Below, piece by piece: positions 7,587-40,551 of a DNA stretch of 64,000 nucleotides; position 1 is the stretch's first letter, and each line of letters begins with the position of its first letter. The stretch spans positions 24,802 through 88,801 of the forward strand of contig CAZUMW010000009.1 of the NCBI GenBank assembly GCA_964621615.1, read 5' to 3'. The translations under genes were made by a program, and so were the position numbers. The notes under the pieces are model-generated. The model worked only from the letters and a program-made list of their open reading frames with translations, had not been told where the DNA came from and ran no database searches. The stretch is from an uncultured Thermodesulfobacteriota bacterium. GTDB lineage: Bacteria; Desulfobacterota; WTBG01; CAIYCZ01; CAIRTM01.

Positions 7587-7591
7587 AGGCT

Positions 7592-12654: not shown

Positions 12655-12741
12655 CCGGTGCTGATGAGCTGGGCTGCTTTTTATATCTAATGGGTTGAAA
12701 CGCTATTTTGCTTTATGCACTTTCGATCGGAGGCAACGGGT

Positions 12742-18813: not shown

Positions 18814-20529
18814 TTATTGTTCCGCGCCGAACAGGCCGGGGTTAACAACCAGCCCGGGGGTTGCGCTTACCGGGCCGTGACTGACTGCTTCCCCGAAAAT
18901 ATCGATATCCTCTATTATGTATGAATAGCGCGTCCTGTTTTTCACGCCAGTGTCTATATAGCGATAGCGCGCGCCGGCTGTCTGCGAGCCTCTGGCCGGT
19001 ATCAGCCCGCTGTTAATCTGTGTGTAGCCCCCTTTGTTTTTAGAGCGATATATGTTAAAGCCTGCGCTGTCCACTTCCGATGCGGTGGCCCAGGTGAGAA
19101 CGACTTTTCTGTTGCCCGGCGATGCGTTCAGATCGCTTATCGTTACAAGAGTCTGGCAGGTACAGTCCTGACACTGTCCGGAGGGGCAGTCTGCATCTGA
19201 TTCACAGGTTTCACCGGGCTCGATTACCCCGTTGCCGCACTCAGGCTCCACGCACGTGCAGCCGTCGCAATACCGGCCGGCAGGGCAGTCGGCATCCGAT
19301 TCGCACTCTTCGGCCCCTTCCACTATTCCGTTACCGCAGACCGGCTGAACACACTGACATCCCTGACAGAATTGACCTGCGGGGCAGTCGGTGTCAATTT
19401 CGCACTGCTCTCCCGGGTCGAGGGTGCCGTCCCCGCAGAGCGGCTCGCCTTTGAGCAATGTCCCGCTGCTGCCCGCAATGAATACGGTATCGGCTGAACT
19501 GCCCCACACGCTGTTCAGGTCTGAGCCTGTGCTTGAGGGCATGGCGGCCCAGCTGCTTCCGTCATGGTGCAGAATCGTGCCGCTGTTTCCCACCGCATAC
19601 ACATCGCCTGCTGCAGATCCCCATACGGCATTGAGATTATTACCTGTCGGGGAGTCCATGGTAGACCAGGAAGTACCGTCATAGTGCAGAATCGTTCCGA
19701 ATTCGCCAACAGCGAATATATCATCGGCCGCGCTCCCCCAAATGCCGTAAAGCGTTTCAGTCGATCCGGTTTCAACCGCAGTCCAGTCATACCCTTCTTT
19801 CCAGCCGGTGGTGTGGATAATGTTCGTATGGGTACCGCTTTGACACAGCATCAATGTATTTTTTTTGCACCCGTATTCACCAACCGCGTAGACATTCTGC
19901 TCGGAGCTGCCCCACACGCCGTACAAATCGATGTTGAACATGGTCGGCGGGTCGCTTTCAGCCTTGTTCACATTGCTGTTGTCAATGTCAAGGTACTGCA
20001 TGTTGTAGTAATAGGTAGCAATAAGAAACGAGCCGATAAACAGATTTCCCGGGGCCCATATTTTGTTCACTGAAACGCCCCATAAATCATATATACCCTT
20101 ACCGCTGAGGTTATTTGACGATACTTTTTCCCAGCCGGACCCGTTAAAGTAATAAACAGTTCTGTTCTGCCGGGCGCCGATGAATACGTTGTCTCCGTCT
20201 GCTCCCCATATTGTCTGCAGATCCCGATCAGCTTTGTCCGGGCTGAAATCGGCGAGCCTCCATTCGCGGCCCGTATAGTGCAGTACCGTTCCGGCCCCCG
20301 TCGGGCCGACATCCCCGATCGCGTAAATATTCGATGAGCCGCTTCCCCAGATATCGTTCAAGTCCGTGCCGGATAAATCATACGTCTCAGTCGATGTGCA
20401 CGCAGGGCTGATTGAGCCTACATCGATCTGCACCCATTGAAACGCACAGGTGTTTACCGGCAGAAGCATACAGAAAACAGTAAGTGCGGCTATTGTTGCT
20501 GTATGCGTGTGCGCTGTGTATTTCCGCAT
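18814..20529 (-). CDS. Secreted beta-propeller protein with three Cys-rich repeats and a C-terminal Ig/FN3-like domain
   Basis: Signal peptide; seven [LI]xx[IVL]WG(S)..[IV][YFW]A[VI]G repeats; three CG[DN]G..E.CE.D.DCP.G..C..C.C repeats; tail LTWATASEVDSAGFNIYRS..IEDID..GPVSATP. Confidence 0.85.
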   Translation of the reverse strand: MRKYTAHTHTATIAALTVFCMLLPVNTCAFQWVQIDVGSISPACTSTETYDLSGTDLNDIWGSGSSNIYAIGDVGPTGAGTVLHYTGREWRLADFSPDKADRDLQTIWGADGDNVFIGARQNRTVYYFNGSGWEKVSSNNLSGKGIYDLWGVSVNKIWAPGNLFIGSFLIATYYYNMQYLDIDNSNVNKAESDPPTMFNIDLYGVWGSSEQNVYAVGEYGCKKNTLMLCQSGTHTNIIHTTGWKEGYDWTAVETGSTETLYGIWGSAADDIFAVGEFGTILHYDGTSWSTMDSPTGNNLNAVWGSAAGDVYAVGNSGTILHHDGSSWAAMPSSTGSDLNSVWGSSADTVFIAGSSGTLLKGEPLCGDGTLDPGEQCEIDTDCPAGQFCQGCQCVQPVCGNGIVEGAEECESDADCPAGRYCDGCTCVEPECGNGVIEPGETCESDADCPSGQCQDCTCQTLVTISDLNASPGNRKVVLTWATASEVDSAGFNIYRSKNKGGYTQINSGLIPARGSQTAGARYRYIDTGVKNRTRYSYIIEDIDIFGEAVSHGPVSATPGLVVNPGLFGAEQ

Positions 20530-20631
20530 TTTTAGTACCTCTTTCTCATACGTATTGATTAATGTAATGGTTAGCGGGCCTAACGCTTGACACATGTAAA
20601 ATAATTGTAATACCGAACTATTGCTAGTGTA

Positions 20632-24433: not shown

Positions 24434-24579
24434 AGCATGAAGCGCGGAGGCGGTGCTTTTGCTGTATTCGCATACATGCCGGGTACCCGCAGTGTGAGCC
24501 GGGCGCCCAGTGCCTGCAGCGCGGGCGCGTATGACAACGAGGCCGGACTGTGTGCCTCACAGGTGCGGAGAAACACACA

Positions 24580-25191
24580 ATGCCTGCCGGCTGTGACGAA
24601 AAAGAGCTTCTGAATCAGTGTATAGCAGGCCGTGCCGATGCCTGGCACCGGTTCATCGAGCGCTATTCCTCCCTTATTTATTTTGCAATTCATGCCGTCA
24701 TGAAAAGCAGGTCTCCCGGCTCCCCGGGTGATGAAATTAACGATCTGCACAATGATGTGCTCCTGTCGCTGATGGAGAAAAACGGCCGAAAGCTCCGCCA
24801 GTATGAGGGCAAAAACGGCTGCACGGTATCCACCTGGATCAGGGTTATCGCAGTGCGGATGACAATCGACCATTTGAGAAAACAAAAAGATGAGATTTCT
24901 GTTTCAGATCAGCAGCCCCGGCCCCAGCCCGAACCTGCCGCCGACGGGGGCTCACGCATGCTGGATGCGCTCGAGGAGAAGGAAAAACAGGCGATCATGG
25001 ATGAGCTTATCGCAGAGCTCCCTGCGCGGGACCGCTTTTTTTTACGGCTTTTTTATTATGAACGGGTCCCGACCCCCCAGATAGCATCGCTTCTCAAGAC
25101 GACAAACAATGCCGTGTACAGCAAAGCACACTATATTAAAGATAAGCTCAAGGCGGCGGTGGAAAAAAAAGTTTCACAGAAAAAGCGCTAG
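24580..25191 (+). CDS. ECF-type RNA polymerase sigma-70 factor
   Basis: Region 2 (AWHRFIERY, DLHNDVLL, TWIRVIAVRMTIDHLRK) and region 4 (LPARDRFFLRLFYY..IASLL..VYS..LK) only; about 203 aa; GGAG RBS. Confidence 0.92.
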   Translation: MPAGCDEKELLNQCIAGRADAWHRFIERYSSLIYFAIHAVMKSRSPGSPGDEINDLHNDVLLSLMEKNGRKLRQYEGKNGCTVSTWIRVIAVRMTIDHLRKQKDEISVSDQQPRPQPEPAADGGSRMLDALEEKEKQAIMDELIAELPARDRFFLRLFYYERVPTPQIASLLKTTNNAVYSKAHYIKDKLKAAVEKKVSQKKR

Positions 25192-25263
25192 CCGCCGTCT
25201 ATAAGTGTGTACAAGAACTGCTGCGCACATTCAGGGTACCGCTCCCGGGGGATTATTGCTTCC

Positions 25264-25965
25264 ATGGAACAGCTTATTGCCGGTTATTTTAAAAAAAACA
25301 AGGAAAATCAAAATGCGCTGCCCTGTCCGTCAGAGGAGACCCTCTGGGACTATATGAGCGGAAGGCTTCCGGCACGGGCGTCGGAACAGGTTGCGCAGCA
25401 TTTGTGCAGCTGCGATCTGTGTGCCCGGACTCTGGTTGCCGCGGCTGAAACCGAGCCGCCTGCCCTTGAGGAGGTGCCGGGCCAGGGATGTGCTCCCCTG
25501 GTCAGCAGGCGGGTTCTGCAGCAGATCCCCCAGCCGGTGAGCGCCGGATGGCGGGGATGGGGGCGCGCCCTCGCAGAGCGTATCCGCGAAGCGGCGGGCG
25601 CCGCTGCCGGGTGGCTGTATCCCGCCTCTGCCGAGTATGTGTATGTGCGCGGAAGAACGCACGTCATATCAAAAAACCTTGTTGTTCTTGAAAAAGAATT
25701 TAAAGATATAACGCTTGAAATCGAGCTGGAAAAGACCGATACACAGAGTACCGATATAAAAGTGTATGCCCGGCGCCCGGGAATCGGAGCCCCGGCGGAC
25801 GGCCTGAGAATAAACCTGTACGCCGGCGATGCGGAAACGGCTTCCTGTGTGACGCACCGGGGGGAGGCGCTTTTTGAGCAGCTCGGATTCGGTGAATACC
25901 GGCTTCGGGTGATGGAGAACGAAAAAAACCGGGGTGAAGTGTTACTTACCATCAAGGAGCAATAG
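25264..25965 (+). CDS. Soluble zf-HC2 (ZAS) anti-sigma factor with a C-terminal Ig-like domain
   Basis: CPSEETLWDYMSG..HLCSCDLC (HxxxCxxC); no TM segment; beta-rich C-terminus (LRINLY..ALFEQLGFGEYRL); directly follows the sigma gene. Confidence 0.85.
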   Translation: MEQLIAGYFKKNKENQNALPCPSEETLWDYMSGRLPARASEQVAQHLCSCDLCARTLVAAAETEPPALEEVPGQGCAPLVSRRVLQQIPQPVSAGWRGWGRALAERIREAAGAAAGWLYPASAEYVYVRGRTHVISKNLVVLEKEFKDITLEIELEKTDTQSTDIKVYARRPGIGAPADGLRINLYAGDAETASCVTHRGEALFEQLGFGEYRLRVMENEKNRGEVLLTIKEQ

Positions 25966-25967: not shown

Positions 25968-28900
25968 ATGGCCGAGGACAGAGAGCAAAAACAGACCCGG
26001 GGTGCTTCAGCAGAGCCCGCCGGCATAGAGCAGCTGCTTGCCGACCGTCAGAAAATAGACGAGGAGCTGAAAGCGAAGTTTTCCCAGGACGTGACGGTTA
26101 TGTTCACGGACATAAAGGGCTCTACCAGCTTTTTTGAAAGCTACGGCGATATTGAAGGGCGCCTGATGGTTCAAAAGCACAATGATCTGCTGTTTCCCGT
26201 TGTGCAGAAATTCGGCGGCAGGGTTATAAAGACAATCGGGGATGCCATTATGGCGGCTTTTGACAGCCCCGAAGCGGCGGTACGCGCGGGCATTGAGATG
26301 CAGAGCAACCTGCAGGAGCACAACCGCGGGAAAAAGGATAAAAAAGATCAGATTCATGTAAGAATAGGCATTAATACGGGCGAGGGCCTGGTCGAGAAAA
26401 GCGACATATTCGGCGATGTTGTCAATGTTGCCGCGCGGGTCGAATCGCTGACCGAGCCGGATGAAATTCTCGTTTCCGCACCCGTATACGACCAGGTGCG
26501 CTCAACGGATGACATTATCTGCCGCTATGCACAGCAGACCCGGGTGAAGGGCAAAGAGGAGCCTATGGATGTGTATCGGGTTATATGGGCCGAAGAGGAG
26601 TGCGCTGCGGGCGTGACCCGCGGCGCCGCGTCTGCGGCAAAGGCTGCGCGGAAGCGGGCCGCCGACCGGCGCCGGCTTGAAATCGATATCAGCAGAGACG
26701 GAACCACCATCAAAGTCTCTGCAGCCGAAAAGAGCCGGCAGACCCAGAGCACTATCAGGCCCTATGAAGAAATGCAGGTATCGATGGTCGATGTCGATCA
26801 GCGCTGCAGCGAAATCACCCAGCTTTTGAACAGGGCGAACACCCGCGGGAAGGTTTCTAAAGACATTTTAAACAAGCTTCGGGATGTGGGCAACGTGCTG
26901 TTTGACATGCTGCTGACAGCACAGACAAAGGATGCTTTGCGAAAGGCCCGCGTCGACGATCTGATTTTTCACATCGAGGACAGCCTGGTGCAGATACCCT
27001 GGGAGCTGCTTTACGACGGGGACCAGTTTCTCTGCCAGAAGTTCAATATGGGCAGGCTGGTAAAAACCAGGCGCCAGATATACGATATCAGGCAGCGAAG
27101 CCTTTCCCGCCCCCTTAAAATGCTCATTGTCTCAGACCCGCGCGGGGACCTTGCGAATTCCTCAAAAGAGGGCCGGGCCATCAGGGAACACCTCGACAGG
27201 CATGCGGAGCTGATCAGCGCCAATCAGCGAAGCGGCCAGATCACGACATCCTATCTTATGGAAAAAATCCGGAATTTTGACATCGTTCACTATGCCGGCC
27301 ACGCCGACTATGATCACGAGGATCCCTCACACAGCGGGTGGCTGCTTGCGGGCGGCAAGTTTACCTCTGCAGACATTGTCAAGCTGGCGGGCGGGCGCCC
27401 CATGCCTGCGCTTGTGTTCTGCAATGCCTGCCAGTCTGGACAGACAGAGGAGTGGAAGCTCGGCGCGCAGTACAGCCGGGAAATATTCGGCCTGGCAAAT
27501 GCCTTTCTGCTGGCCGGCGTTCAGCATTATATCGGCACCTTCTGGGAGATACTCGATGAGCCGGGCGCACACTTTGCGGAGGCATTTTACCGGTCGGTTC
27601 TAGACGGCGCCACAATCGGGGAAGCCGTGAGGCAGGCCCGCGCGGAGCTGATCAAGCAGCACGGTGAGGACACGATCGTGTGGGCCAGCTATATGCTGTA
27701 CGGCGATCCGGGAATGAGCTATTGTGATTTTGACGATGAGCAGGAAGCTGAGGAGCCGCATGATGCACAGCCCCGCGTCAGGGAAGCCGCACAGGTGCGG
27801 GGTGCGCCCAGCGACGTTGTTGCCTTTGAGACGCCGCAGCCGCGCGCTTCGCGGAGCAAATACGTTATTGCCGCAGCCGCGGCGATTGTTGCGTGCGCTG
27901 CAGCTCTTCTGCTTGCCGGACGCTTTTTCAGCTCCGGAACAGATCCCTACAGTGCGGCATATGCGCAGCTGCAGGCACATAAAGTAGAGGATGCACGAAA
28001 AGCCTTTTCAGGGCTTGCCGAAGATGACCCGCGCCGCTACGAGGGCCTTGCCGCCGTCCGCTATGAGCTCGGCGATTATGACGGATCATTTACATTAAGC
28101 TCCCGCGCTCTGGAGATAGCGCCTCACAGCGTGTATGCGCATGTGCTGCAGGGGCGGGTGCTGCTGTCCCGCGGCCGTGAGGCTGACGCGCTCCAGCACT
28201 TTCAGGCAGCAGCCGGCAAAAGCGGCGGCATCTCCTGGCAGAAGGCAGAGGCGCTGAACGGAATCGCCCGCATCTGGTCCGAGTGGGGAGATACGCAGAA
28301 AGCCATGCAGTTTTACGCCCGCGCGGCAGAGCTTAACCCGAGGAGCCCGGAAATTGTTACAAACCGTGCATTTGCCATGCAGAAAACGGGCAACACCGCC
28401 GGAGCTGTGTCCGGCTTTAAGGACGCCGCCGGCCTTAACCCGCAGGATCCCTATGCATCGGTATTCCTTGCCGAAGCGCTGAAAAAGCAGAAAGCCGAGC
28501 AGGACAGCAAGCGCCGTGAGCGCATCGACAAGCTGGTTGATGAGCTTGCGGAAAACTTTGATGCCGGCGGCGCCGCGGCCGCGCAGCAGGACACGTGGAC
28601 GTCCCGGCCGCTCACCCTCAGCTTCATAAACATAACCGGCAAAGGCGCGCCGGCGCAGCGCGAGGGCGCTGACGAGTTTTTTCTCATGCAGCTGAGCGCG
28701 CTGCTGCAGGGAAGCGGCCGGGCTCAGGTTGTCGAGCGCGAGCTTCTGGAGCAGGTGCTTCAGGAGTTGAAGCTGAGCGCAACCGATCTGGTCAATCCCG
28801 ACACCGCGGTTCGCCTGGGCAGGATTCTTTCCGCCCGCGTTATTGCCACCGGATCTATTATGCGCTATAGTAATCAAATTCAGGTCAGCCTGCGCCTCAC

Positions 28901-29267
28901 CGATACTGAAACAACCGCGCTGAAGGGCGTTATCGCGGAAAGCGGTACGGACCCTGCAGAGCTTGCCCGGCAGATCGCCGGGGAAATAACACAGCAGCTC
29001 ACGAAAGCATACCCGATCCGCGGCAGCGTTGTCGAGCTCGACGGGAATCAGCTGCTGCTCGATATCGGCAGCGCTCTGGGGGTAACGGAGGGCATGGAGT
29101 TTACGGTCCTTGACGAGGTTCGCCCGGAGAGCGGCGGGCGTATGCGGCTGCGCCCTCTGGGAACAGCGCGGATTGCATCTGTTGCTCCTGAATACGCCTA
29201 TGCCGAGCCCTCTGGGAACAGCGGGTCTTTCAAACCGGGATTGAAGGTAAAGCAGCTGGTGCAGTAA
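25968..29267 (+). CDS. Membrane protein: class III adenylate cyclase - CHAT protease - TM - TPR - CsgG-like - FlgT_C-like
   Basis: Cyclase motifs MFTDIKGST, KTIGDAIMA, RIGINTG, DIFGDVVNVAARVE; CHAT motifs PWELL, IVHYAGH, VFCNAC, AFLLAGV..IGTFW; TM VIAAAAAIVACAAALLLA; TPRs; VVERELLEQVLQELKL..LGRILSA. Confidence 0.9.
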   Translation: MAEDREQKQTRGASAEPAGIEQLLADRQKIDEELKAKFSQDVTVMFTDIKGSTSFFESYGDIEGRLMVQKHNDLLFPVVQKFGGRVIKTIGDAIMAAFDSPEAAVRAGIEMQSNLQEHNRGKKDKKDQIHVRIGINTGEGLVEKSDIFGDVVNVAARVESLTEPDEILVSAPVYDQVRSTDDIICRYAQQTRVKGKEEPMDVYRVIWAEEECAAGVTRGAASAAKAARKRAADRRRLEIDISRDGTTIKVSAAEKSRQTQSTIRPYEEMQVSMVDVDQRCSEITQLLNRANTRGKVSKDILNKLRDVGNVLFDMLLTAQTKDALRKARVDDLIFHIEDSLVQIPWELLYDGDQFLCQKFNMGRLVKTRRQIYDIRQRSLSRPLKMLIVSDPRGDLANSSKEGRAIREHLDRHAELISANQRSGQITTSYLMEKIRNFDIVHYAGHADYDHEDPSHSGWLLAGGKFTSADIVKLAGGRPMPALVFCNACQSGQTEEWKLGAQYSREIFGLANAFLLAGVQHYIGTFWEILDEPGAHFAEAFYRSVLDGATIGEAVRQARAELIKQHGEDTIVWASYMLYGDPGMSYCDFDDEQEAEEPHDAQPRVREAAQVRGAPSDVVAFETPQPRASRSKYVIAAAAAIVACAAALLLAGRFFSSGTDPYSAAYAQLQAHKVEDARKAFSGLAEDDPRRYEGLAAVRYELGDYDGSFTLSSRALEIAPHSVYAHVLQGRVLLSRGREADALQHFQAAAGKSGGISWQKAEALNGIARIWSEWGDTQKAMQFYARAAELNPRSPEIVTNRAFAMQKTGNTAGAVSGFKDAAGLNPQDPYASVFLAEALKKQKAEQDSKRRERIDKLVDELAENFDAGGAAAAQQDTWTSRPLTLSFINITGKGAPAQREGADEFFLMQLSALLQGSGRAQVVERELLEQVLQELKLSATDLVNPDTAVRLGRILSARVIATGSIMRYSNQIQVSLRLTDTETTALKGVIAESGTDPAELARQIAGEITQQLTKAYPIRGSVVELDGNQLLLDIGSALGVTEGMEFTVLDEVRPESGGRMRLRPLGTARIASVAPEYAYAEPSGNSGSFKPGLKVKQLVQ

Positions 29268-29525: not shown

Positions 29526-31616
29526 GTGACGACGGTGAAAACATACAGAATATTAGCTTTGCTGCTTGCTTCTGCGCTGCTTGTAAGCGCGGTGCCGGGG
29601 TGCAATACACCGCCTGACCCGAAGTACCGGAAGGACGGAACGCAGTACGGGGTCACGGACGGTTTGTTCCGCGACCGGTGGTGGAATTATTACGAGCGGG
29701 GCCTTTCCTTTTCCGACGGGGAATTCTGGAAAGAAGCCGCAGAGGATTTCCGGGAAGCGCTCAGGCAGCGGGACAGCGACCAGCGCCTCGCCCGGACCTA
29801 CGGAATGCACTTTACCGATTATTTTCCGCACCGGGATCTGGGGGTTGCCCTGTATCACCTGGGCCGGTTCGATGAGGCCCGGCGCGAGCTTGAGACATCG
29901 CTTGCCGCTGTAGAAACCGCGAAGGCGAAATTTTATCTGAACCGGGTCAGGAAGGCAATCATCGCCGCAAGCAATGCCGATACCGCCCGCCCCTCGATAG
30001 AGGTTTCCTCCGTTCCCGCCGATGCGGTCAGCAACAGCTTCAGCATGACGCTCGAGGGTGAAGTGGCCGATGACACATATGCAGAAAAAGTTGCGGTCAA
30101 CGAAGATCCCGTTTTTGTTGAGCTGTCTGCAAAGCGGATTCCCTTTAGCAAGAAGATCAGGCTCAAAAAAGGGCTCAATGAAATAAAAATTAAATCCACG
30201 GACCTCATGGGCAAGAAATCCGAAAAAACGGTCACTGTCTACGGCGACTATCAGGGGCCCCTTGTCAATGTCAGCAATTACGCCGACGGGCAGAAGACCG
30301 CACAGGGAAGGGTCGTCCTGCACGGATCGCTTGCAGACGCAACCGGCATCACTACCTTTAAAATCAACGAGCAGGTCCTTGCCTATAACAAAGAGCGGGA
30401 AGTGGACTTCACGTTTGCGGTGAACCTCGAGCAGGGCTCAAATGAAATCATGCTTGCGGCGACGGATACAGCGGGCAACACAACGCGCGGAACGCTCAAT
30501 CTGGTTTATGTGCCGCGCCTTGCAGAAGAGCCGGCTCCTGAGAAACCATTGTATGCAGGCGAGCCGATCCGGGTGGCCCTTCAGGGCTCGGGCGTGCTCG
30601 ACACAGGTCAGCACCGGCTGTATGCCGCAGCGCGGCCGGGGGGGGCGGCAGGCTCCTTCAGGCTGAATCTGAAAGACCTGGCGGAGACGCAGACCGTCTA
30701 TTACAAAACAATGTATATTGACGGCAGCGTTACCGGGCGCCATCCGGTTGAATCGGTTTCGGTTAACGGCGATCCGCTGATGATCATTCCGGGTAAAACA
30801 ATTTATTTTAACGAGCTTGTCGAGCTCGATGAGGGTGAAAACACGCTGAGGATAACCGTTGAAGATGCGCAGGGGAACACCGAATCCCGGACCGTCACGA
30901 TCGTCAGGCGGGTTCCCTCTGTTCATCAGGTCGACTCGCGTATGAGCATTGCCATTCTGCCGTTTGAGAAAAAGGGTGAAATCACCCCGGCCTCGGATAT
31001 TATCTATGATAATCTTATCAGCTCCTTTTTTGACCAGAACCGCTTTCATATCGTCAGCCGCGGCGAAGAGCTGGAATCAGCCCTCAGAGAGCAGAAGCTG
31101 AGCCGGACCGATCTCGTGGACAAGAGCGCCGCCGTGGAGCTGGGCAGGCTGGTCGCCGCCGAGGCGGTGCTGATGGGCTCCATTCGCGAAACCGCGGATG
31201 CCGTGGAAATCTATGCCCGGATGGTCAACACGGAAACGTCATCGCTGCTTGAGGTGAAGGACGTGTACGGTCAGGACAAATCCCTGGCAAGCCTGCAGTA
31301 TCTGACAAACGGCCTTGCGCTGAAGTTTGTGCACAGCTTTCCGCTGGTCGAGGGTATGGTGCTCAAGGTCGACGGCGACACGATATATGCTGACTTCGGT
31401 ACCGATCAGCAGATTAAAAAGGAAATGAAATTTATCGTGTTCCGGGAGGGGGAGAAAATAATTCACCCCGTAACCGGCCGGGTGCTCGGCAGCAACACCG
31501 AAGAGCTCGGCGTTGCGCGAGTGGTGAATGTGTTTGAGGATATGTCGCTCGGCAAGCTGGTTGCTGATATTGATCACGGGCTTATTAAACAAAAGGACCT
31601 CATTATTACAAAATAG
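29526..31616 (+). CDS. Lipoprotein: TPR - Ig-like repeats - CsgG-like - FlgT_C-like
   Basis: Lipobox VPGC; TPR (YFPHRDLGVALYHLG); Ig repeats with GLNEIKI / GSNEIML / GENTLRI; SIAILPFE..EQKLSRTDLVD..LGRLVAA; EGMVLKVDGD. Confidence 0.85.
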   Translation: MTTVKTYRILALLLASALLVSAVPGCNTPPDPKYRKDGTQYGVTDGLFRDRWWNYYERGLSFSDGEFWKEAAEDFREALRQRDSDQRLARTYGMHFTDYFPHRDLGVALYHLGRFDEARRELETSLAAVETAKAKFYLNRVRKAIIAASNADTARPSIEVSSVPADAVSNSFSMTLEGEVADDTYAEKVAVNEDPVFVELSAKRIPFSKKIRLKKGLNEIKIKSTDLMGKKSEKTVTVYGDYQGPLVNVSNYADGQKTAQGRVVLHGSLADATGITTFKINEQVLAYNKEREVDFTFAVNLEQGSNEIMLAATDTAGNTTRGTLNLVYVPRLAEEPAPEKPLYAGEPIRVALQGSGVLDTGQHRLYAAARPGGAAGSFRLNLKDLAETQTVYYKTMYIDGSVTGRHPVESVSVNGDPLMIIPGKTIYFNELVELDEGENTLRITVEDAQGNTESRTVTIVRRVPSVHQVDSRMSIAILPFEKKGEITPASDIIYDNLISSFFDQNRFHIVSRGEELESALREQKLSRTDLVDKSAAVELGRLVAAEAVLMGSIRETADAVEIYARMVNTETSSLLEVKDVYGQDKSLASLQYLTNGLALKFVHSFPLVEGMVLKVDGDTIYADFGTDQQIKKEMKFIVFREGEKIIHPVTGRVLGSNTEELGVARVVNVFEDMSLGKLVADIDHGLIKQKDLIITK

Positions 31617-31640: not shown

Positions 31641-31670
31641 AAAACCCGCCCGCGTACGGGCGGGTTTTTT
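31641..31670. terminator. Bidirectional Rho-independent terminator
   Basis: AAAACCCGCCCG-CGTA-CGGGCGGGTTTTTT. Confidence 0.88.
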
Positions 31671-31734
31671 TCTGTAAATCCTGCATGCCCTTTTGTGTCC
31701 CGCTCCCGGCTTTAAACTCCTGTTAAACTTCAGC

Positions 31735-31764
31735 TTGACACATACTGCATTAGCTACTAATAAT
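31735..31764 (+). promoter_or_regulatory. Sigma70-type promoter for the FadL-like gene
   Basis: TTGACA-N18-AATAAT (or N17-TAATAA). Confidence 0.55.
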
Positions 31765-31811: not shown

Positions 31812-33191
31812 ATGAAAAAATGGTATATCCTTTTTGCCGCATCGGCAATATGTATGTGCCTGATTTCGTCTGCAGCGGCACAGACTCAGGTTGCCGGCTT
31901 CACCATACCGCGCATTAAAGTCGCTTCCTCTCCCAATCCTGTCGGCTCCGGGGCGCGGGCACAGGGAATGGGCGGAGCGTTTATCGCCGTCGCAGATGAT
32001 GCCACAGCGGCTTCCTGGAACCCCGGGGGGCTTATTCAGCTGGAGCGGCCGGAGGTTTCATTTGTGGTGAACATGACCCACCGCAGGAAAGACCTGCATT
32101 TTTCCGAGCACCCCGGCTCGCCCGATACCCATGAAATATATCGAGAGGATTTGAATTATTTCAGCGTTGCATTTCCGTTCCGCGCATTTGATAAAAACAT
32201 GATCGTATCGCTCAACTATCAGCGCCTGTATGATTTCTACGACGATATGGAGTTTGATTTTGAGTATAACACCCTGTCGCCCGGCTCGTTTTTCCACAGC
32301 CGGATACAGACCGACTATCGCCAGCGCGGCGGGCTCAAGGCAGTGTCGCCCGCCTTTGCCATACAGCTCACCCCGCGGTTTTCCGTCGGTATTACCTTCA
32401 ACATCTGGACTGACAACCTCGGCTTTGATAACGAGTGGAAAAATGTCTATGAATACCGCGTGACCGGCTCCGCGTTTCTCCATGCAAATCAATCGCTGAT
32501 TAAATTCCGGGGCAGATCCGTTGACTGGCAGGAGAATGAAAATTTTGAAGGCTTTAACATGAACATCGGCTTTCTCTGGGATATAAACAGCAAAGTAACC
32601 ATCGGCGGAGTGCTCAAAACCCCGTTTACCGCCGACATCGACAGAACCACCTACCGGTCAACCTATCAGGCATACGGGACGACACCGCCGCTGCGGGTTA
32701 TCCCGCAGGTGAGCAAAGAAAGCATACAGATGCACTTTCCGCTGTCGTTCGGGATCGGCATAGCGCTTCGCCTTTCAGACAGGCTCACCCTGTCCGGGGA
32801 TGTCTATTATACGGACTGGTCTGATTTCTGGATACGATCGGGCGGCGTAAAAATAACCCCCATAACCAGCGGCCGCCGCAGCGACGCTCATGTGCACGAT
32901 ACGACGCAGGTGCGCCTTGGCTGCGAGTATCTGTTTATCCTTGAAAAAACAATTGTTCCGCTCAGGTTCGGCGCCTTTTATGACCCGCAGCCCACGCGGA
33001 AAAACCCCGATGATTATTTCGGCATTACGGCCGGTACGGGAGTGATGTTGGGCCCGCTGGTTATCGATTGCTGCTACATTTACCGGTGGGGCGACGATGT
33101 TATGGGCGATTCCATTCAGCTTTCCGGCGGCAGCGTTGAAGCTGATGCGGATCAGCACCGGTTTCTGCTGTCGGTTATATATCATTTTTAG
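31812..33191 (+). CDS. FadL/OmpP1/TodX-family outer-membrane beta-barrel
   Basis: Signal peptide; hatch motif GSGARAQGMGGAFIAVADDATAASWNPGGL; amphipathic strands; terminal aromatic residue (YHF). Confidence 0.87.
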   Translation: MKKWYILFAASAICMCLISSAAAQTQVAGFTIPRIKVASSPNPVGSGARAQGMGGAFIAVADDATAASWNPGGLIQLERPEVSFVVNMTHRRKDLHFSEHPGSPDTHEIYREDLNYFSVAFPFRAFDKNMIVSLNYQRLYDFYDDMEFDFEYNTLSPGSFFHSRIQTDYRQRGGLKAVSPAFAIQLTPRFSVGITFNIWTDNLGFDNEWKNVYEYRVTGSAFLHANQSLIKFRGRSVDWQENENFEGFNMNIGFLWDINSKVTIGGVLKTPFTADIDRTTYRSTYQAYGTTPPLRVIPQVSKESIQMHFPLSFGIGIALRLSDRLTLSGDVYYTDWSDFWIRSGGVKITPITSGRRSDAHVHDTTQVRLGCEYLFILEKTIVPLRFGAFYDPQPTRKNPDDYFGITAGTGVMLGPLVIDCCYIYRWGDDVMGDSIQLSGGSVEADADQHRFLLSVIYHF

Positions 33192-35186: not shown

Positions 35187-36410
35187 ATGAACACCAATGC
35201 TGACCGAATAAGCCCGCGCGAGCGGCGGGTGCTGCTGGCGACCTGCTTTACACACTTCATGAGCCATGTAAATGTGCTTGCCTTTCCTGCGCTTGTCCTG
35301 CCGCTTTCCCGAAGCCTGGATATGGAGATTAGCGGTGTGATGGATCTTTCTTTTTTGATGTACCTGCTGTACGGGCTTTCGGCGATTATGTGGGGTGCTG
35401 CGGCAGACCGGTGGAGCGCCTCTTCGCTGCTTCGCCTGTTCCCGGCCGGCTGTGCGCTGAGCTGCTTTGCTGCGGCATGGGCGATCGGCTCGCCCCGCCA
35501 GCTGAGCATCTGCCTTGCAGCGCTGGGCTTTTTTTCCGGCATCTATCATCCGGTGGGGCTGGGATACATTTCTCAAACCATTCGCCGCGTAAGCCGGGGG
35601 TTTGCCTGGAACGGTATTTTCGGCAATCTCGGCGTTGCGCTTGCCCCGCTTGCAGCCGGTGCGCTGGTATGGCTGCACGGCCCCGCGGCCTGCTATGTTT
35701 TCCTTGGTTCGGTCAACCTGCTGGGGCTCTTTTTCGTGCGCGGCCTTCGTGATCCCGGTACCGGTATGCACGAAGACGAACCGGTGCCGGCGCCGTCTTC
35801 CGGGCATTTGAAGGGATTCGTTATTCTGCTGGGGATTATGATGCTGGGCGGTATCGTGTACCGGGGGGCGACGCTTGTGCTGCCCGCCTTTGTCGAGCTG
35901 AGAAGCATGTCCGCCGTTCGATCCCTTTTTTCATTTGACGGGACGGCCGAGTCCGTAACCTTTATCGCCACGGTCATTGCCTCAGTGATTTATCTGTTCG
36001 GGATTCTCGGCCAGTATTCCGGCGGGCGCGTTGCCGAGCGCTATGATCTCAGGTACTGCTATCTGTGCTTTCATCTCGTGCCCGCCTGTGCAGCTTTCTG
36101 CATCTCGGCTGCATATGGGTTCCCGCTTGTGGGCTGCGCGGCTGTGTACTTTTTCTTTCTTCTGGGGATGCAGCCTATTGAGAACACGCTGGTTGCCCGG
36201 CTTGCATCCGATGCTTTTCGGCACTCAGCCTATGGGGCAAAATTTGTGCTGACATTCGGCGTCGGCTCCCTGTCCGTGAAAATGATTTCAGTCATAGAGC
36301 ACCGCTATGGTATGGCGCCCGTGTTTGTAATGCTCGGCGCGGTTTCCTGCCTGCTTGTCATGGGAATCCTGCTTTTGATTTCACGGACCCGCCCTCAGAT
36401 GTCGTCCTGA
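35187..36410 (+). CDS. MFS transporter
   Basis: About 12 TM segments; GAAADRWS, SGIYHPVG, GGRVAERY. Confidence 0.92.
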   Translation: MNTNADRISPRERRVLLATCFTHFMSHVNVLAFPALVLPLSRSLDMEISGVMDLSFLMYLLYGLSAIMWGAAADRWSASSLLRLFPAGCALSCFAAAWAIGSPRQLSICLAALGFFSGIYHPVGLGYISQTIRRVSRGFAWNGIFGNLGVALAPLAAGALVWLHGPAACYVFLGSVNLLGLFFVRGLRDPGTGMHEDEPVPAPSSGHLKGFVILLGIMMLGGIVYRGATLVLPAFVELRSMSAVRSLFSFDGTAESVTFIATVIASVIYLFGILGQYSGGRVAERYDLRYCYLCFHLVPACAAFCISAAYGFPLVGCAAVYFFFLLGMQPIENTLVARLASDAFRHSAYGAKFVLTFGVGSLSVKMISVIEHRYGMAPVFVMLGAVSCLLVMGILLLISRTRPQMSS

Positions 36411-36504
36411 TTTCCCGAACGCCTCTGAAGAAAGTTGGAAAAAATATTTTTTACATTTGAATTGATATCAAACGTGTCCACAATACATTAAAGCAATAAA
36501 CAAC

Positions 36505-36546
36505 AGCCGGTTGCGGGGGCTTTGCAGAGCCCCGCCCGAACCGGCT
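36505..36546. other. GC-rich imperfect hairpin in an AT-rich spacer
   Basis: AGCCGGTT-GCGGGGGCT..AGCCCCGC-CCG-AACCGGCT. Confidence 0.5.
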
Positions 36547-36696
36547 TCGTTACATTATTTTGGACACCGGTGAATTGATATAGATTGTTTGTTGCCTATG
36601 CAATGATAATATTGAAATTTTTTATTTTTTATATTATTGGTGTTAATTGATAAACAATCGTGAAAAACGTTCGTATTTTTCAGACTGATATGTCGT

Positions 36697-37278
36697 ATGA
36701 ATTTATCTGTACGGATCTCCAGTGCAAATGATGTGCCCTGCATAATTAAAGATTATGGTCATTTAAATATTCTTTTCAGGATGACCTACGGCAGGTATGT
36801 GCTTAAACGGGAATATTATGCCTACAAAAAACTTTCAGGGCTTGAAGGTATAACAGAGTGTCTTGGTTTCAAACGGCCCGGTGCGCTTGCCTTCAAACCC
36901 ATTCCCGGAAAAACGCTCAGCCGTTTTAAACGGGGTGAGGTGGCGCCCGTTGTATTTGAACGGCTTGAATCACTGCTTGCGAATATCCATTCCAGGGGTG
37001 TTGCTCACGGTGATATTCACCGGTCAAATATAATGATTGCCGAGAACGGCAGGGTCTATATTATCGACTTTGCCTCTGCGGTTACTTCCGGTGACCCGGA
37101 GAATCCACATTTTTTATTCACGATTTTCAGGATGCTCGATATAAATGCCCTGAAACGTATAAAATCACGATATCTTATGCAGCATTGCCCGAAGCCGGAG
37201 GGGTTCATTGGCAAGTGTTACCGTATTGCACGGCGAATCAAATCAAAAACAAAAAAAATAAAGCGGCTTTTATTCTGA
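36697..37278 (+). CDS. Small protein-kinase-fold enzyme (RIO1/Kdo/LPS-kinase-like)
   Basis: IIKDY, RE..AY..L, HSRGVAHGDIHRSNIMI..YIIDFA; AT-rich. Confidence 0.8.
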   Translation: MNLSVRISSANDVPCIIKDYGHLNILFRMTYGRYVLKREYYAYKKLSGLEGITECLGFKRPGALAFKPIPGKTLSRFKRGEVAPVVFERLESLLANIHSRGVAHGDIHRSNIMIAENGRVYIIDFASAVTSGDPENPHFLFTIFRMLDINALKRIKSRYLMQHCPKPEGFIGKCYRIARRIKSKTKKIKRLLF

Positions 37279-37317
37279 ATTTCATAGTTTGGATATTTTT
37301 CCTCAGGAGGCTATGGG

Positions 37318-37893
37318 ATGCTGCCTGGTATAGCTAAAAAAGTCAATACAATTTTCAACAACAAAACAGTAAGAAAAGTGCTGTTAAAGTGTCGTTACCC
37401 CCTGTTTTTTGCCTTTGCGCTCCTTACGCTTGGCTACATAAAACGTGAATGGTTTATACCTGCTGTTTTGGTTTCTTTCACTGGCACATGTATTCAGTGC
37501 TGGTGTTTCGCTACCCTGGAGAAAAACAAGATCATTTGCTGGAAAGGGCCGTATCTGCTGGTGAGAAACCCAATGTACATCGGCCGCTATTTTATCATTT
37601 TCGGGTTTTTGCTACTGCTCGGCAATATATGGATTTTGATACTGTTTGCAATACTCTATTACTTTTATATGGTTAACCGTGTGCAGCGGGAAGAGAACAA
37701 ATTGAAAAGTATTTTCGGCGAAGCCTATGAAGAGTACTGCAATAAGGTTAACCGCTTTATGCCTTCTTTGAAAAATTACGACCACACGCAGTTTTTTCAG
37801 TTTTGCCTTACAACCTTCCTGCGCAACAACGGGCACTGGAATTTTACGTTGGTCCTTGCGGCACTTCTCAGCGCCTTTATCATAGTGAAATAA
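37318..37893 (+). CDS. Isoprenylcysteine carboxyl methyltransferase / PEMT-family membrane methyltransferase
   Basis: GPYLLVRNPMYIG, REENKLKSIFGEAYEEYCNKVNRF; AT-rich. Confidence 0.87.
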   Translation: MLPGIAKKVNTIFNNKTVRKVLLKCRYPLFFAFALLTLGYIKREWFIPAVLVSFTGTCIQCWCFATLEKNKIICWKGPYLLVRNPMYIGRYFIIFGFLLLLGNIWILILFAILYYFYMVNRVQREENKLKSIFGEAYEEYCNKVNRFMPSLKNYDHTQFFQFCLTTFLRNNGHWNFTLVLAALLSAFIIVK

Positions 37894-38259
37894 TATGTTC
37901 TCATAGATAGTCATGGCAGCAGGCGCGGGCCTTTTGTTGCTGGTGGCCGGTTTGCGAACAGCTGTTTTCTGACAGGCAGGAGCGCGGCGCATATCCATCG
38001 CAATATAGTGGTATTATTCATGTTGTCCATCAGCTTTTTTTTGTGCTTTTACCTTCTGAAAACCTCAAAAGAAGAATCGCGTCAGCCGCTTTGATCTTTT
38101 CGCCCCAGTTTGCAACAGCGATCCAGATCACAAAAATGTTCTCACCTTCAGGTTTTGATTTACAATAAAGGAATCCGTACAGGGTGCGCTTCCCAACCTG
38201 TTATGAATGTGCTATTTAGTAAAATAAATTCAATCTCACCACAGCACCTGTAATAACAC

Positions 38260-40087: not shown

Positions 40088-40513
40088 ATGGATATTTTAG
40101 TTGCAGAGGACAATCACGATCATCTCGAGCTTATTGTGCAGGCGCTCAATGAGCAGCTGGGACCGGAATGCCGGATTGCGGTTGCGGGTGACGGGCAGCA
40201 GGCGCTTGATTACCTTTACCGGAAGGGGATGCATGCTGCCGACAGCAGCCATTTTCTGCCTGATCTCATACTGCTTGATCTCAATATGCCGAAAGTGGAT
40301 GGCCGTGATGTGCTTAAAGCGGTGAAGGAAGACGCTGAGCTGAGAACGATTCCGGTTGTTGTTCTGACGACCTCAACGCACGATCGGGACATAGCGGAAA
40401 GCTACCGCAGCGGCACGAATTCCTATATTGTCAAGCCGGTTATGTTTGACGAATTAAGGAAGGTTATCAGAGACATCACCGGTTACTGGGCTGCGACCAA
40501 TACCGGCCCTTGA
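40088..40513 (+). CDS. Single-domain response regulator (Rcp1-like)
   Basis: ILVAEDN, PDLILLDLNMPKVDG, IPVVVLTTS, NSYIVKP. Confidence 0.95.
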   Translation: MDILVAEDNHDHLELIVQALNEQLGPECRIAVAGDGQQALDYLYRKGMHAADSSHFLPDLILLDLNMPKVDGRDVLKAVKEDAELRTIPVVVLTTSTHDRDIAESYRSGTNSYIVKPVMFDELRKVIRDITGYWAATNTGP

Positions 40514-40551
40514 GAAAAGCTGATGCGCGAACCGGCTTCCGGAATACAAAC

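Follow-up and report, generated by a model that had tools for sequence, protein, structure and literature searches.

Gene content of the locus

The locus lies within a window of 64,000 nucleotides, the whole stretch of DNA that was analysed, and comprises a set of five genes on the forward strand: an ECF sigma factor, a zinc-type anti-sigma, a cyclase-CHAT protein, an outer-membrane lipoprotein and a FadL-like porin. The original prediction viewed the cyclase-CHAT gene alone. Two genes upstream of it, the translationally coupled one for the anti-sigma-like protein and the one for the ECF sigma factor, were overlooked, as were the lipoprotein and porin genes downstream. The genes and features are, in order:

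24550..25191, + strand: ECF-type sigma factor, likely true start ATG 24580
25207..25965, + strand: soluble anti-sigma-like protein, likely start ATG 25264, giving 233 aa
25645..25653, + strand: V-R-G motif of the anti-sigma linker (R148 of the 252-aa ORF, R129 in the 233-aa numbering), candidate CHAT cleavage or recognition site
25968..29267, + strand: cyclase-CHAT-TM-TPR-CsgG/LpoB-like protein, 1099 aa, with an AAGGAG ribosome-binding site 8 nt upstream
26073..26585, + strand: class III nucleotidyl cyclase catalytic domain, aa 36-206, with catalytic D48, K88, D92, D146, N153 and R157
26589..26672, + strand: disordered cyclase-CHAT linker, aa 208-235, with V-T-R218-G (R218 at nt 26619-26621)
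26673..27707, + strand: CHAT (caspase-like) protease with an N-terminal beta/helical extension, aa 236-580, dyad H445 and C488
27714..27854, + strand: disordered CHAT-membrane linker, aa 583-629, with Q-V-R611-G (R611 at nt 27798-27800)
27855..27938, + strand: single transmembrane helix, aa 630-657, N-terminus cytoplasmic
27945..28577, + strand: periplasmic TPR repeats, about aa 660-870 (Pfam TPR_19, TPR_2, TPR_12, TPR_1)
28605..29264, + strand: periplasmic CsgG/LpoB-like alpha/beta domain and C-terminal beta domain (Pfam CsgG, LpoB)
29526..31616, + strand: lipoprotein with lipobox ..AVPGC, one TPR, three Ig-like domains (Glucodextran_B/Big) and a CsgG/LpoB-like C-terminal module
31648-31665, + strand: terminator-like hairpin, then a T-run (consensus scan only)
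31735-31764, + strand: sigma-70-like promoter TTGACA-18-AATAAT ahead of the porin gene (consensus scan only; the whole hairpin-promoter stretch is 31648..31764)
31812..33191, + strand: FadL/PorV-like outer-membrane beta-barrel with a signal peptide (Pfam Toluene_X, E 2.4e-15)

The sigma factor was recognised by NCBIfam sigma70-ECF (TIGR02937, 74 bits against a cut-off of 42.9) and by Pfam Sigma70_r2 and Sigma70_r4_2, and it has regions 2 and 4 only. In the case of the porin gene, the NCBIfam matches to BamG and PorV stayed under their cut-offs. Rfam and tRNA scans were empty.

In the anti-sigma-like protein, a disordered linker joins an N-terminal zinc-type anti-sigma helices domain to an Ig-like beta-sandwich at the C-terminus. 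The Pfam zf-HC2 match (16.8 bits) is under its threshold of 22.2 and the NCBIfam match to a ChrR-type anti-sigma is weak. The zinc motif C..HxxxCxxC (C40, H65, C69 and C72 of the ORF) is 84-92% conserved among 142 family representatives, and no hydrophobic (membrane) helix was detected in the protein. An AF2 model, built on only 9 sequences, shows the beta-sandwich at aa 132-230 (pLDDT above 90), preceded by helices at about aa 24-62 and 78-118; Foldseek matches of this model were limited to Ig-like sandwiches of a generic kind and weak ones to ChrR. Word-indexed searches reached only 4, then 8 such proteins, and it was an exhaustive profile search that revealed the family, which counts 949 clusters (50% identity) at E<=1e-10.

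A shared ECF-type promoter (5-mer, N14-18, 4-mer) was also searched for upstream of 32 sigma genes. The best pattern was present in 7 of the 32, against a shuffled maximum of 4, and was rejected because it is probably coding sequence of the upstream gene.

Conservation of the gene cluster

Synteny was counted over 81 non-redundant genome loci, 32 of them well flanked (at least 6 kb on each side). In the well-flanked loci an orthologue of the lipoprotein was found in 31, of the porin in 26 and of the sigma factor in 23 cases; among related loci with at least 2.2 kb of upstream DNA, the sigma orthologue was present in 46 of 63. Hundreds of Thermodesulfobacteriota, Nitrospirota and related genomes carry the five-gene set; in species-representative genomes, at least 321 stretches were confirmed as matching. 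The same genes were seen in 11 loci at 38-74% identity and also on long metagenomic contigs, and the position of the cluster between recJ/pgi and ordinary chromosomal genes is kept in at least eight related genomes. We regard the domain architecture and the cluster membership as highly probable.

In 53 of 73 loci the anti-sigma gene immediately precedes the cyclase-CHAT gene, and in the window the ribosome-binding site of the cyclase-CHAT gene sits within the anti-sigma gene end. Two loci (L050, L070) have the sigma gene moved away and the anti-sigma gene still joined to cyclase-CHAT. Two others (L066, L071) show a 133-aa anti-sigma remnant joined to cyclase-CHAT with no sigma gene nearby; this remnant keeps a T-V-R-S motif and the beta-sandwich, without the zinc motif. 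No anti-sigma gene adjoins cyclase-CHAT in 20 of the 73 loci (about a quarter), thus the anti-sigma cannot be the sole substrate of the protease.

Genes for cNMP-binding proteins were considered as a conserved core partner and rejected as anecdotal, since such neighbours occur in only 5 of 81 loci, which by a rough estimate is about the chance level for these genomes. Within the cluster they were found in L016, L044 and L058, which would speak for a real cNMP output.

Architecture and topology of the cyclase-CHAT protein

The order of the parts in the 1099-aa ORF is class III cyclase, CHAT, one transmembrane helix, periplasmic TPR and CsgG/LpoB-like domain. Database searches returned 1476 homologues at E<=1e-5, and a survey of the best 120 of these 1476 showed the architecture to be common to them. 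Residue conservation was counted over 108 full-length homologues; one record lacks the cyclase domain, so that the cyclase counts refer to 107.

The topology is N-in and single-pass, with a large periplasmic part. The Kyte-Doolittle profile (19-residue window) peaks at 2.57 over the transmembrane helix, which is the sole such segment in the protein, and no signal peptide was found. Lys and Arg are richer on the N-terminal side of the helix, in the window protein as well as in 77 of 95 single-helix homologues. Thus the cytoplasmic placement of both enzymes, as originally proposed, is borne out, and with both of them on a single-pass protein with a big periplasmic part, periplasmic control is topologically sensible.

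In the periplasmic part, the C-terminal domain reaches 32 bits with Pfam CsgG (cut-off 20.8) and 22.7 bits with LpoB (cut-off 22.3). Residues 935-1072 match window positions 31095-31532, the C-terminus of the lipoprotein, at 29% identity (E 1.4e-12), indicating paralogous modules. This was the sole match when a second copy of the cyclase-CHAT gene was sought within the window, and no such copy was found. Faint FlgT_C matches were observed in homologues.

Catalytic residues of the two enzymes

The cyclase domain was detected by Pfam Guanylate_cyc (PF00211) at aa 36-199 with E 1.4e-24 and 87.2 bits against a cut-off of 21.9. Its motifs are FTDIKG with the metal-binding D48, KTIGDA with K88 and the metal-binding D92, and DIFGDVVNVAAR, which holds D146, N153 and R157. 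These six residues align onto the catalytic residues of the solved adenylyl cyclase Ma1120 (4wp3, E 1.4e-26), and the AF2 model of the domain (pLDDT above 90) superposes on Ma1120 chain 5d0e_B with a TM score of 0.94 and an rmsd of 1.5 A. D48, D92 and R157 are each present in 107 of 107 homologues and N153 in 101 of 107.

The CHAT domain was matched over the whole Pfam model (PF12770) at aa 306-580, with E 6.3e-41 and 141.1 bits against a cut-off of 24, and its AF2 pLDDT is mostly above 85. H445 (codon nt 27300-27302) lies in HYAGH (aa 441-445, nt 27288-27302) and C488 (codon nt 27429-27431) in NAC (aa 486-488, nt 27423-27431); this His-Cys dyad is invariant in 108 of 108 full-length homologues. 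A single-sequence search of the PDB with the CHAT region gave no match, and a profile of nine CHAT regions gave weak matches to PDB sequences, to a SAVED-CHAT protein (8tl0, E 0.02) and to Csx29 (E 0.1). In Foldseek with the cyclase-CHAT model, the matches listed were cyclases, crowding out CHAT comparisons.

The original prediction had read both enzymes as apparently intact, and every motif it quoted was found where it had been placed. With the cyclase residues and the dyad present, aligned and conserved, this reading is confirmed, and the homologues gave no sign of a general loss of catalytic residues. Its assignment of ATP specificity fits the window protein through K88 and D146; it does not extend to the family. 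Here the substrate-specifying Lys/Asp pair is kept in only about 63-72% of members (K88 in 77 of 107 homologues, D146 in 78 of 107), and about 30-37% of homologues carry other residues, with E/A, D/H, S/H, G/H and others in place of the pair. At the substrate-specifying position, the Glu typical of guanylyl cyclases was found in 13 loci. For the window protein, the cyclase domain probably makes cAMP, as judged from these residues. The natural variant series (E/A, D/H, S/H, G/H) could reveal new nucleotide specificities.

An arginine motif in three disordered linkers

One isolated, near-invariant motif of the form [V/I/L/T]-R-[G/A/S/T] was found in each of three predicted disordered cytoplasmic linkers, namely the linker of the anti-sigma-like protein, the cyclase-CHAT linker and the linker that leads from CHAT to the membrane helix. 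In the cyclase-CHAT linker (AF2 pLDDT below 50 at aa 213-230), R218 is kept in 107 of 108 homologues (99%), with V/T/L/I at P2 in 104 and A/G/S/T at P1' in 88 of the 108. In the CHAT-membrane linker (pLDDT below 50 at aa 590-631), R611 is kept in 100 of 108 homologues, and a further 2 carry K instead; V/L/I stands at P2 in 81 and A/S/T/G at P1' in 95. A semi-conserved E-E-V-I-D-F stretch follows R611 in most homologues and is weak in the window protein. The anti-sigma linker Arg (R129) occurs in 141 of 142 representatives, with V/I/L/M at P2 in 131 and G/S/T/A at P1' in 122; the columns flanking this motif are about 25% conserved and pLDDT is below 50 at aa 118-130.

The P2 and P1' preferences thus match among the three linkers. 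Relative to shuffled linkers, the enrichment of the motif is 2- to 6-fold. It occurs in 96 of 108 cyclase-CHAT linkers (shuffled mean 15.7, maximum 29) and in 83 of 108 CHAT-membrane linkers (shuffled mean 21.4, maximum 34). A periplasmic linker practically lacks it (3 of 108), and the N-terminal tail shows no enrichment (10 of 106). Among 167 conserved positions in the cyclase-CHAT protein only three are isolated, and R218 and R611 are two of them.

From the conserved linker motifs solely, we infer that the CHAT protease would be specific for Arg at P1. The earlier suggestion that cleavage could release the cyclase gains support from the isolated R218 and from the recurrence of its motif in the other linkers, and self-cleavage of the cyclase-CHAT protein at R218 and R611 appears to us possible, at a little short of an even chance. 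The conserved Arg residues could also act as docking elements, as pseudosubstrates or through contacts absent from the AF2 models.

Proposed mechanism and alternative explanations

We propose that the cyclase-CHAT protein serves as the inner-membrane transducer of an envelope-signalling cluster, and that its CHAT protease cuts the anti-sigma as well as its own linkers after Arg. As a whole, and read from sequence as it is, this proposal may equally well be right or wrong. The periplasmic TPR/CsgG-like part would contact the paralogous lipoprotein module and, via the lipoprotein, the porin. A signal from the envelope or outer membrane would be passed through the single helix and activate the CHAT protease, which would cleave after Arg like its clan relatives separase and the metacaspases. 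A cut at R148 of the anti-sigma ORF, between the sigma-binding helices and the beta-sandwich, would free the ECF sigma factor. Self-cuts at R218 and R611 would take the cyclase domain and/or the protease off the membrane, and the homodimeric class III cyclase with its ATP-specifying Lys/Asp pair would make cAMP as a second output. Because of the neighbouring sigma/anti-sigma, lipoprotein and porin genes, the anti-sigma would be the likeliest protease substrate and transcription a main output. A direct role of the anti-sigma-like protein as substrate or partner of CHAT has, in our estimate, an even chance.

A more speculative extension, which we hold to be rather doubtful, is a one-shot, self-dismantling receptor. 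On an envelope signal, an Arg-specific CHAT protease would make three cuts at V-R-G/A/S, detaching itself from the membrane, severing the fused cyclase and cleaving the soluble anti-sigma; an ECF sigma regulon and a diffusible cyclic nucleotide would both follow from this one proteolytic event. Sister systems would then use other nucleotides, with the Glu-type pair probably cGMP, next to the Asp/His and Ser/His pairs. If true, these differing nucleotides could insulate paralogous pathways inside one cell.

Several other explanations were weighed against the proposal. Ligand-induced periplasmic dimerisation might yield cAMP and an active protease with substrates elsewhere, in parallel and with no proteolytic link to the sigma pair, which is in essence the main model of the original prediction; the zinc-type anti-sigma would then respond to a cue of its own, for instance thiol oxidation as known from RsrA or ChrR, and do no more than set operon expression. 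Class III cyclases require dimerisation, and the conserved HxxxCxxC of the anti-sigma family makes redox sensing possible. Furthermore, in the 20 loci in which no anti-sigma gene adjoins, the protease must serve another function. However, such parallel outputs leave unexplained why the anti-sigma, and not the sigma, stays joined to cyclase-CHAT, why a zinc-less V-R-S remnant is kept without a sigma, and why one isolated Arg motif is common to the anti-sigma and both CHAT-flanking linkers, and we consider them unlikely. The same three-linker evidence would also suit uncut V-R-G/A motifs that occupy the CHAT active site as pseudosubstrates or tethers, keeping the protease off and the anti-sigma membrane-bound until a signal displaces them. 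Securin inhibits the CHAT relative separase in this manner (PMC11506125). Nevertheless, three separate inhibitors for one active site are unparsimonious and the small P1' residue (G/A/S/T) suits a scissile bond. In addition, proteases of the caspase clan as a rule autoprocess at inter-domain linkers. Pseudosubstrates seem to us distinctly improbable.

Anti-phage defence or abortive infection of the Pycsar or CRISPR-ancillary type, with the cyclase making an alarm nucleotide and CHAT as effector, would be in line with the matches (E 3.3e-13 at best) of PADLOC PycC models to the cyclase domain, the weak match of BovA on the CHAT part and the role of CHAT proteases in type III CRISPR defence. Mobile or defence-like neighbours were seen in a few related loci: L014 lies near SLATT and reverse transcriptases of group II introns, L013 near bAvd. 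These PADLOC matches reflect domain-level homology only, and neither a CRISPR array nor any cas or other defence gene was found in the window. The chromosomal place on the recJ/pgi side, shared by the related genomes, the periplasmic, lipoprotein and porin partners, which are untypical for defence systems, and a Lys/Asp pair that specifies ATP and not pyrimidines all argue against defence, which we judge highly improbable. A Pycsar identity was rejected on the domain-level PycC homology, the purine pair and the housekeeping syntenic context. A similarly slight chance is given to a cyclase domain that makes no cyclic nucleotide and serves the protease as a non-catalytic scaffold for dimerisation or regulation. 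Its substrate-specifying pair is not conserved family-wide and the domain sits at the far N-terminus, distant from the membrane helix. This is countered by the retention of D48, D92, the transition-state R157 and N153, by variants that keep recognisable specificity pairs such as the guanylyl-cyclase Glu, and by the two cNMP-binding kinase genes that adjoin the cluster (L044, L058), both of which lie in Glu-type cyclase loci.

Comparison with known systems

In the literature searched in full text, neither a fusion of cyclase and CHAT nor the five-gene cluster is described. The closest solved relatives of the cyclase domain, the mycobacterial class III enzymes Ma1120 and Rv1900c (LipJ), have the same catalytic hexad, but are soluble or fused to a lipase-like domain and have no protease, membrane helix or sigma context. 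As in the FecA-FecR-FecI system, an ECF sigma factor is co-encoded with a transducer of the inner membrane and a protein of the outer membrane for trans-envelope control of transcription; unlike Fec, the cluster is without a TonB-dependent transducer or FecR, its anti-sigma is a soluble protein, and enzymes take the place of an anti-sigma domain in the inner-membrane protein.

As for proteases, metacaspases, which are clan relatives of CHAT, cleave after Arg. Separase, which self-cleaves and is held by its pseudosubstrate securin, shares a clan with the window CHAT, and the V-R-G/A sites flanking the window protease look analogous to those of separase self-cleavage. Separase cleaves after Arg in ExxR (PMC11506125). 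It differs in being eukaryotic and soluble, with no cyclase and another recognition motif.

ECF sigma factors governed by a dedicated protease of the cytoplasm, with a soluble anti-sigma as its target, are so far known mainly from CRISPR-associated defence modules, where Csx29 (Craspase) and CalpL cleave proteins that hold sigma. As here, Craspase (type III-E CRISPR, with Cas7-11/gRAMP, the TPR-CHAT protein Csx29, Csx30, Csx31 and an RpoE-type sigma) has a CHAT protease in the cytoplasm that is genetically tied to an ECF-type sigma factor. Both have a small sigma-holding protein and share the proposed logic of a signal, a CHAT cut and a freed sigma. However, the window contains no repeat arrays and no Cas7-11 gene, the five cluster proteins gave no cas-like PADLOC matches, and with the III-E sigma model the window sigma reaches only 27.9 bits (cut-off 100). 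Craspase is activated by target RNA, whereas the cluster would use a membrane receptor with the protease fused to a cyclase. The match of the window CHAT to Csx29 is marginal, and the window motifs point to a P1 Arg; to our knowledge the characterised Craspase protease is not Arg-specific. In CalpL-CalpT-CalpS, a signal-activated cytoplasmic protease is reported to cleave a soluble anti-sigma-like protein and so set free an ECF-type sigma, similar to our proposal; the differences are a Lon-like protease class (SAVED-Lon), activation by cyclic oligoadenylate and a type III CRISPR defence setting.

In DdvA of Myxococcus xanthus, a periplasmic CHAT domain is proposed to self-cleave and thereby release an ECF sigma factor (PMC11506125). 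DdvA/DdvS shares with the cluster the ECF sigma, the zinc-type anti-sigma domain, one membrane helix, TPR and CHAT, and the proposed trigger, self-cleavage in a flexible juxtamembrane linker, resembles the one proposed here (PMC11506125). DdvA is one polypeptide with a cytoplasmic zinc anti-sigma domain, a periplasmic TPR-CHAT and an incomplete active site (PMC11506125). Unlike DdvA, the window CHAT is cytoplasmic (N-terminal of the only helix), separate from a soluble, helix-free anti-sigma, and has a cyclase attached to it.

If true, the proposal would mean that the protease-sigma logic of CRISPR systems is carried into ordinary envelope signalling and coupled to cyclic-nucleotide signalling in one polypeptide, in a cluster that is widespread among sulfate reducers and nitrite oxidisers. 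The cluster offers three exact candidate cleavage sites. It would assign a predicted Arg specificity to CHAT proteases, which are mostly of unknown specificity. Compared with Craspase, CalpL and DdvA, we infer that the cluster would be a new form of protease-controlled ECF sigma signalling.

Protein architecture and gene cluster

The original prediction had placed an adenylate cyclase and a CHAT protease, both apparently intact, in one protein. This observation was confirmed by Pfam domains, by the motifs and by alignment to the nearest solved protein, the Mycobacterium avium adenylyl cyclase Ma1120 (E 1.4e-26, cyclase domain). Its interpretation is supported in part: it had viewed the gene in isolation and missed the sigma/anti-sigma and envelope partners that surround it (25968..29267). 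The cluster consists of the following genes:

24550..25191, + strand, ECF sigma factor (NCBIfam sigma70-ECF, 74 bits)
25207..25965, + strand, anti-sigma-like protein of 233-252 aa (weak zf-HC2 and ChrR-type anti-sigma matches)
25968..29267, + strand, cyclase-CHAT protein, a single long ORF of 1099 aa
29526..31616, downstream of the cyclase-CHAT gene, lipoprotein with TPR, three Ig-like domains and a CsgG/LpoB-like C-terminal module
31812..33191, downstream of the lipoprotein gene, FadL/PorV-like outer-membrane barrel

Both Pfam matches in the cyclase-CHAT protein lie far over the curated cut-offs (class III cyclase, aa 36-199, E 1.4e-24; CHAT, aa 306-580, E 6.3e-41). The cyclase motifs FTDI, KTIGD/GDA, DIFG and NVAAR are all located where they had been predicted, as are the CHAT motifs HYAGH (27288-27302) and NAC (27423-27431). 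In the alignment, D48, K88, D92, D146, N153 and R157 fall on the catalytic residues of Ma1120. When residues 1-641 were modelled with AlphaFold2 from 63 homologues (mean pLDDT 82, pTM 0.82), the cyclase part superposed on Ma1120 with a TM of 0.94 and an rmsd of 1.5 A. All the sequence criteria that were tested mark the protein as a true member of both the class III cyclase and the CHAT families. A signal peptide is absent, and the sole hydrophobic helix spans aa 630-657. K/R residues are richer on the N-terminal side of this helix, which places cyclase and CHAT in the cytoplasm and the last 440 residues in the periplasm. This latter portion holds TPR repeats and a CsgG/LpoB-like domain (Pfam), and its C-terminus is paralogous to the C-terminal module of the lipoprotein (29% identity, E 1.4e-12).

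Only 2 nt separate the anti-sigma-like stop codon from the cyclase-CHAT ATG, and the ribosome-binding site AAGGAG of the latter lies within the last codons of the former. The porin gene may be transcribed on its own, since a terminator-like hairpin plus T-run and then TTGACA-18-AATAAT, a near-consensus sigma-70 promoter, separate it from the lipoprotein gene (31648-31764).

Conservation of the cluster and the family

The same five genes recur, though their order varies, in related loci with identities as low as 38%. Of the 32 loci flanked by 6 kb or more on each side, the lipoprotein was found in 31, the porin in 26, the anti-sigma in 24 and the sigma factor in 23. The anti-sigma-like gene ends directly 5' of the cyclase-CHAT gene in 53 of the 73 loci with upstream DNA, drawn from 81 non-redundant genome loci. 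As in the window, several related genomes have pgi and recJ at the flanks of the cluster.

At E<=1e-5, 1476 proteins match aa 1-620, and nearly all of the best 120 of these have the cyclase + CHAT (+ TPR + CsgG-like) architecture. These best matches belong to metagenome-assembled genomes of Thermodesulfobacteriota ('Deltaproteobacteria') and Nitrospirae; those that have a name go no further than 'CHAT domain-containing protein' or 'class 3 adenylate cyclase/CHAT'. Scanning a single genome for each species yielded 321 confirmed stretches, some of them in Nitrospinia, Binatia, Desulfobacter, Desulfatiglans and Geobacter bins. Among 108 full-length members, the His and Cys of CHAT never vary; D48, D92 and R157 are retained in all 107 of these that have the cyclase domain, and N153 in 101. 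Two unusual arrangements were observed. Locus L080, from a Binatia bin, carries three tandem cyclase-CHAT-like genes (4371-12761). In locus L014 (8001-10725), the protein is divided: cyclase-CHAT (656 aa) and a CsgG/FlgT_C protein are encoded separately, with a SLATT gene and reverse transcriptases of group II introns nearby.

Substrate specificity and cyclic-nucleotide neighbours

The substrate-specifying Lys/Asp pair is present in only about 72% of the 108 full-length members. A genome-derived set of 85 rows (the window, the 81 loci and 3 more whose metal-site motif is non-canonical) showed K/D in 52, E/A in 13, D/H in 6 and S/H in 4, the remainder being G/H, D/Q, D/N and others. Such variants occur in loci L044, L052, L058, L066, L071, L073, L079, L081, L086-L088, L091, L092 and others. 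Glu at this position is a hallmark of guanylyl cyclases. With its K/D pair, the enzyme of the window is most likely an adenylyl cyclase, and the varied pairs elsewhere indicate that the family probably uses more than one nucleotide, suggesting sister systems with cGMP or something unusual.

A cNMP-binding gene lies inside the cluster in three related loci. In L016 (6782-7849), a gene for two cNMP-binding domains joined to rhodanese stands between the anti-sigma and cyclase-CHAT genes. L044 (4505-6157) and L058 (8745-10526), whose cyclases are of the E/A type, encode PilZ-cNMP-Ser/Thr kinases directly downstream. Overall, cNMP-binding neighbours in 5 of 81 loci are anecdotal, and they fit a real cyclic-nucleotide output. 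A Crp-type regulator follows the lipoprotein gene in L012 (13994-14698, - strand).

The anti-sigma-like protein

An exhaustive profile search at E<=1e-10 collected 949 clusters at 50% identity; most of the best 150 are 205-250 aa long. The zinc motif C-x24-H-x3-C-x2-C is 84-92% conserved among 142 representatives, and a hydrophobic helix is absent from all 12 orthologues examined. The AlphaFold2 model, with an input of just 9 sequences (mean pLDDT 73), has helices at the N-terminus, a disordered stretch at aa 118-130 (pLDDT below 50) and a confident Ig-like beta-sandwich at aa 132-230 (pLDDT above 90). Using this model, Foldseek returned nothing beyond generic sandwiches and weak matches to ChrR/SigE. 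The layout resembles that of ChrR, which joins a zinc anti-sigma domain to a C-terminal signal-receiving domain. The second domain is different here, and the present protein is soluble.

A conserved arginine in three linkers

While checking for a cleavage site, we observed one nearly invariant Arg amid the variable sequence of the cyclase-CHAT linker. The motif recurs in two further linkers.

Arginine motifs in the linkers; the last counts give [VILMT]R[GAST] against 200 shuffles
R218, V-T-R-G, cyclase-CHAT linker: Arg 107/108; P2 V/T/L/I 104; P1' A/G/S/T 88; motif 96/108, shuffled mean 15.7, max 29
R611, Q-V-R-G, CHAT-membrane linker: Arg 100/108 plus 2 Lys; P2 V/L/I 81; P1' A/S/T/G 95; motif 83/108, shuffled mean 21.4, max 34
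R129 (233-aa numbering; R148 of the ORF), Y-V-R-G, anti-sigma linker: Arg 141/142; P2 V/I/L/M 131; P1' G/S/T/A 122; motif 123/142, shuffled mean 56, max 73

As controls, a periplasmic linker (3/108, shuffled mean 23.5) and the N-terminal tail (10/106, shuffled mean 13.3) had no excess. An unbiased scan for positions at least 90% conserved with flanks averaging below 40% retrieved only N119, R218 and R611 from the 167 conserved residues of cyclase-CHAT (1099 aa), and R129 plus four others in the anti-sigma-like protein. AlphaFold2 gives a pLDDT below 50 to the segments around R218, R611 and R129. Release of the cyclase by cleavage, which the original prediction had offered as one possibility, gains support from the conserved lone R218 in a disordered linker.

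The anti-sigma linker has a second isolated conserved position, V71-P72 (233-aa numbering; window 25474-25479), in an AlphaFold2-disordered stretch; the Pro occurs in 94% of the 142 representatives, often preceded by Val. After the R611-equivalent Arg, most homologues have a semi-conserved E-E-V-I-D-F, which may be a docking strand; in the window, SDVVAF (aa 615-620, 27810-27827) is a weak version of it.

Other features of the window

From 36001 to 38000 the G+C content is 0.45, against about 0.55 elsewhere, and this DNA may have been acquired; it holds a small kinase-like ORF with APH/RIO/Pkinase fragments (36697-37278) and a membrane methyltransferase that resembles PEMT/ICMT (37318-37893). 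A dense signalling neighbourhood comprises, within 8 kb, two histidine kinases with CHASE8-HAMP-PAS domains and one receiver-histidine kinase hybrid (38260-40029, +; 40510-42123, +; 43964-46309, -). The ORF at 13320-14996 (+), which matches Kdo/WaaP-type lipopolysaccharide kinases twice and carries a fragment of a protein kinase, is surrounded by glycosyltransferase genes, and the region looks like an LPS core region. No Pfam matches were found for 18814-20595 (-, 593 aa) and 9466-10872 (-, 468 aa) at cut-offs of 1e-4 and 1e-5.

Proposed mechanism and comparison with known systems

The most economical reading of these sequences is an Arg-specific CHAT protease with three cognate sites. A cut in the anti-sigma would free the sigma factor, two cuts flanking the protease itself would free cyclase and protease from the membrane, and the cyclase would give a second output. 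Invariant acidic residues, D390, D438 and D530, may line the S1 pocket of the protease. An envelope or outer-membrane event is suggested as the input by the periplasmic TPR/CsgG-like part, by the lipoprotein module paralogous to it and by the porin. Every mechanistic step here is one that we infer, and the reading makes a specific prediction, namely three cleavage sites.

Alternatively, the linker motifs could be pseudosubstrates instead of cleavage sites. The outputs might also be parallel and independent, with no proteolytic link to the sigma pair. That would not account for the attachment of the anti-sigma gene: the sigma gene is relocated in loci L050 and L070 while the anti-sigma gene still adjoins cyclase-CHAT, and in L066 (709-1110) and L071 (9589-9990) a 133-aa anti-sigma-like remnant directly upstream lacks both the zinc motif and a nearby sigma gene, with T-V-R-S and the beta-sandwich retained. 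A non-catalytic cyclase is another alternative; the variable substrate-specifying pair speaks for it, and the metal-binding and transition-state residues, which stay fixed in an otherwise orthologous family, speak against it. Against a defence role, the window surroundings are those of a normal chromosomal region (pgi, recJ, glycosyltransferases, two-component systems, ClpB, glycogen phosphorylase), and searches of the window for a CRISPR array, tRNA or Rfam match found none.

Self-processing at inter-domain linkers is common in caspase-clan proteases. Separase, a CHAT relative, cuts after Arg (PMC11506125). A full-text literature search found no paper on the cyclase-CHAT fusion or on the five-gene cluster. 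Identities as Craspase, DdvA-type anti-sigma or Pycsar were rejected, defining features of each having been tested and found missing. In CRISPR-linked systems a sigma-holding protein is cut by a CHAT or other protease: Csx29 of Craspase cuts Csx30, and CalpL cuts the sigma-holding CalpT. The M. xanthus anti-sigma DdvA has its own periplasmic TPR-CHAT, for which self-cleavage was proposed (PMC11506125). Judged from sequence, the cluster is a candidate new form of a known principle, in which proteolysis controls an ECF sigma factor, with an unusual cyclase fusion.
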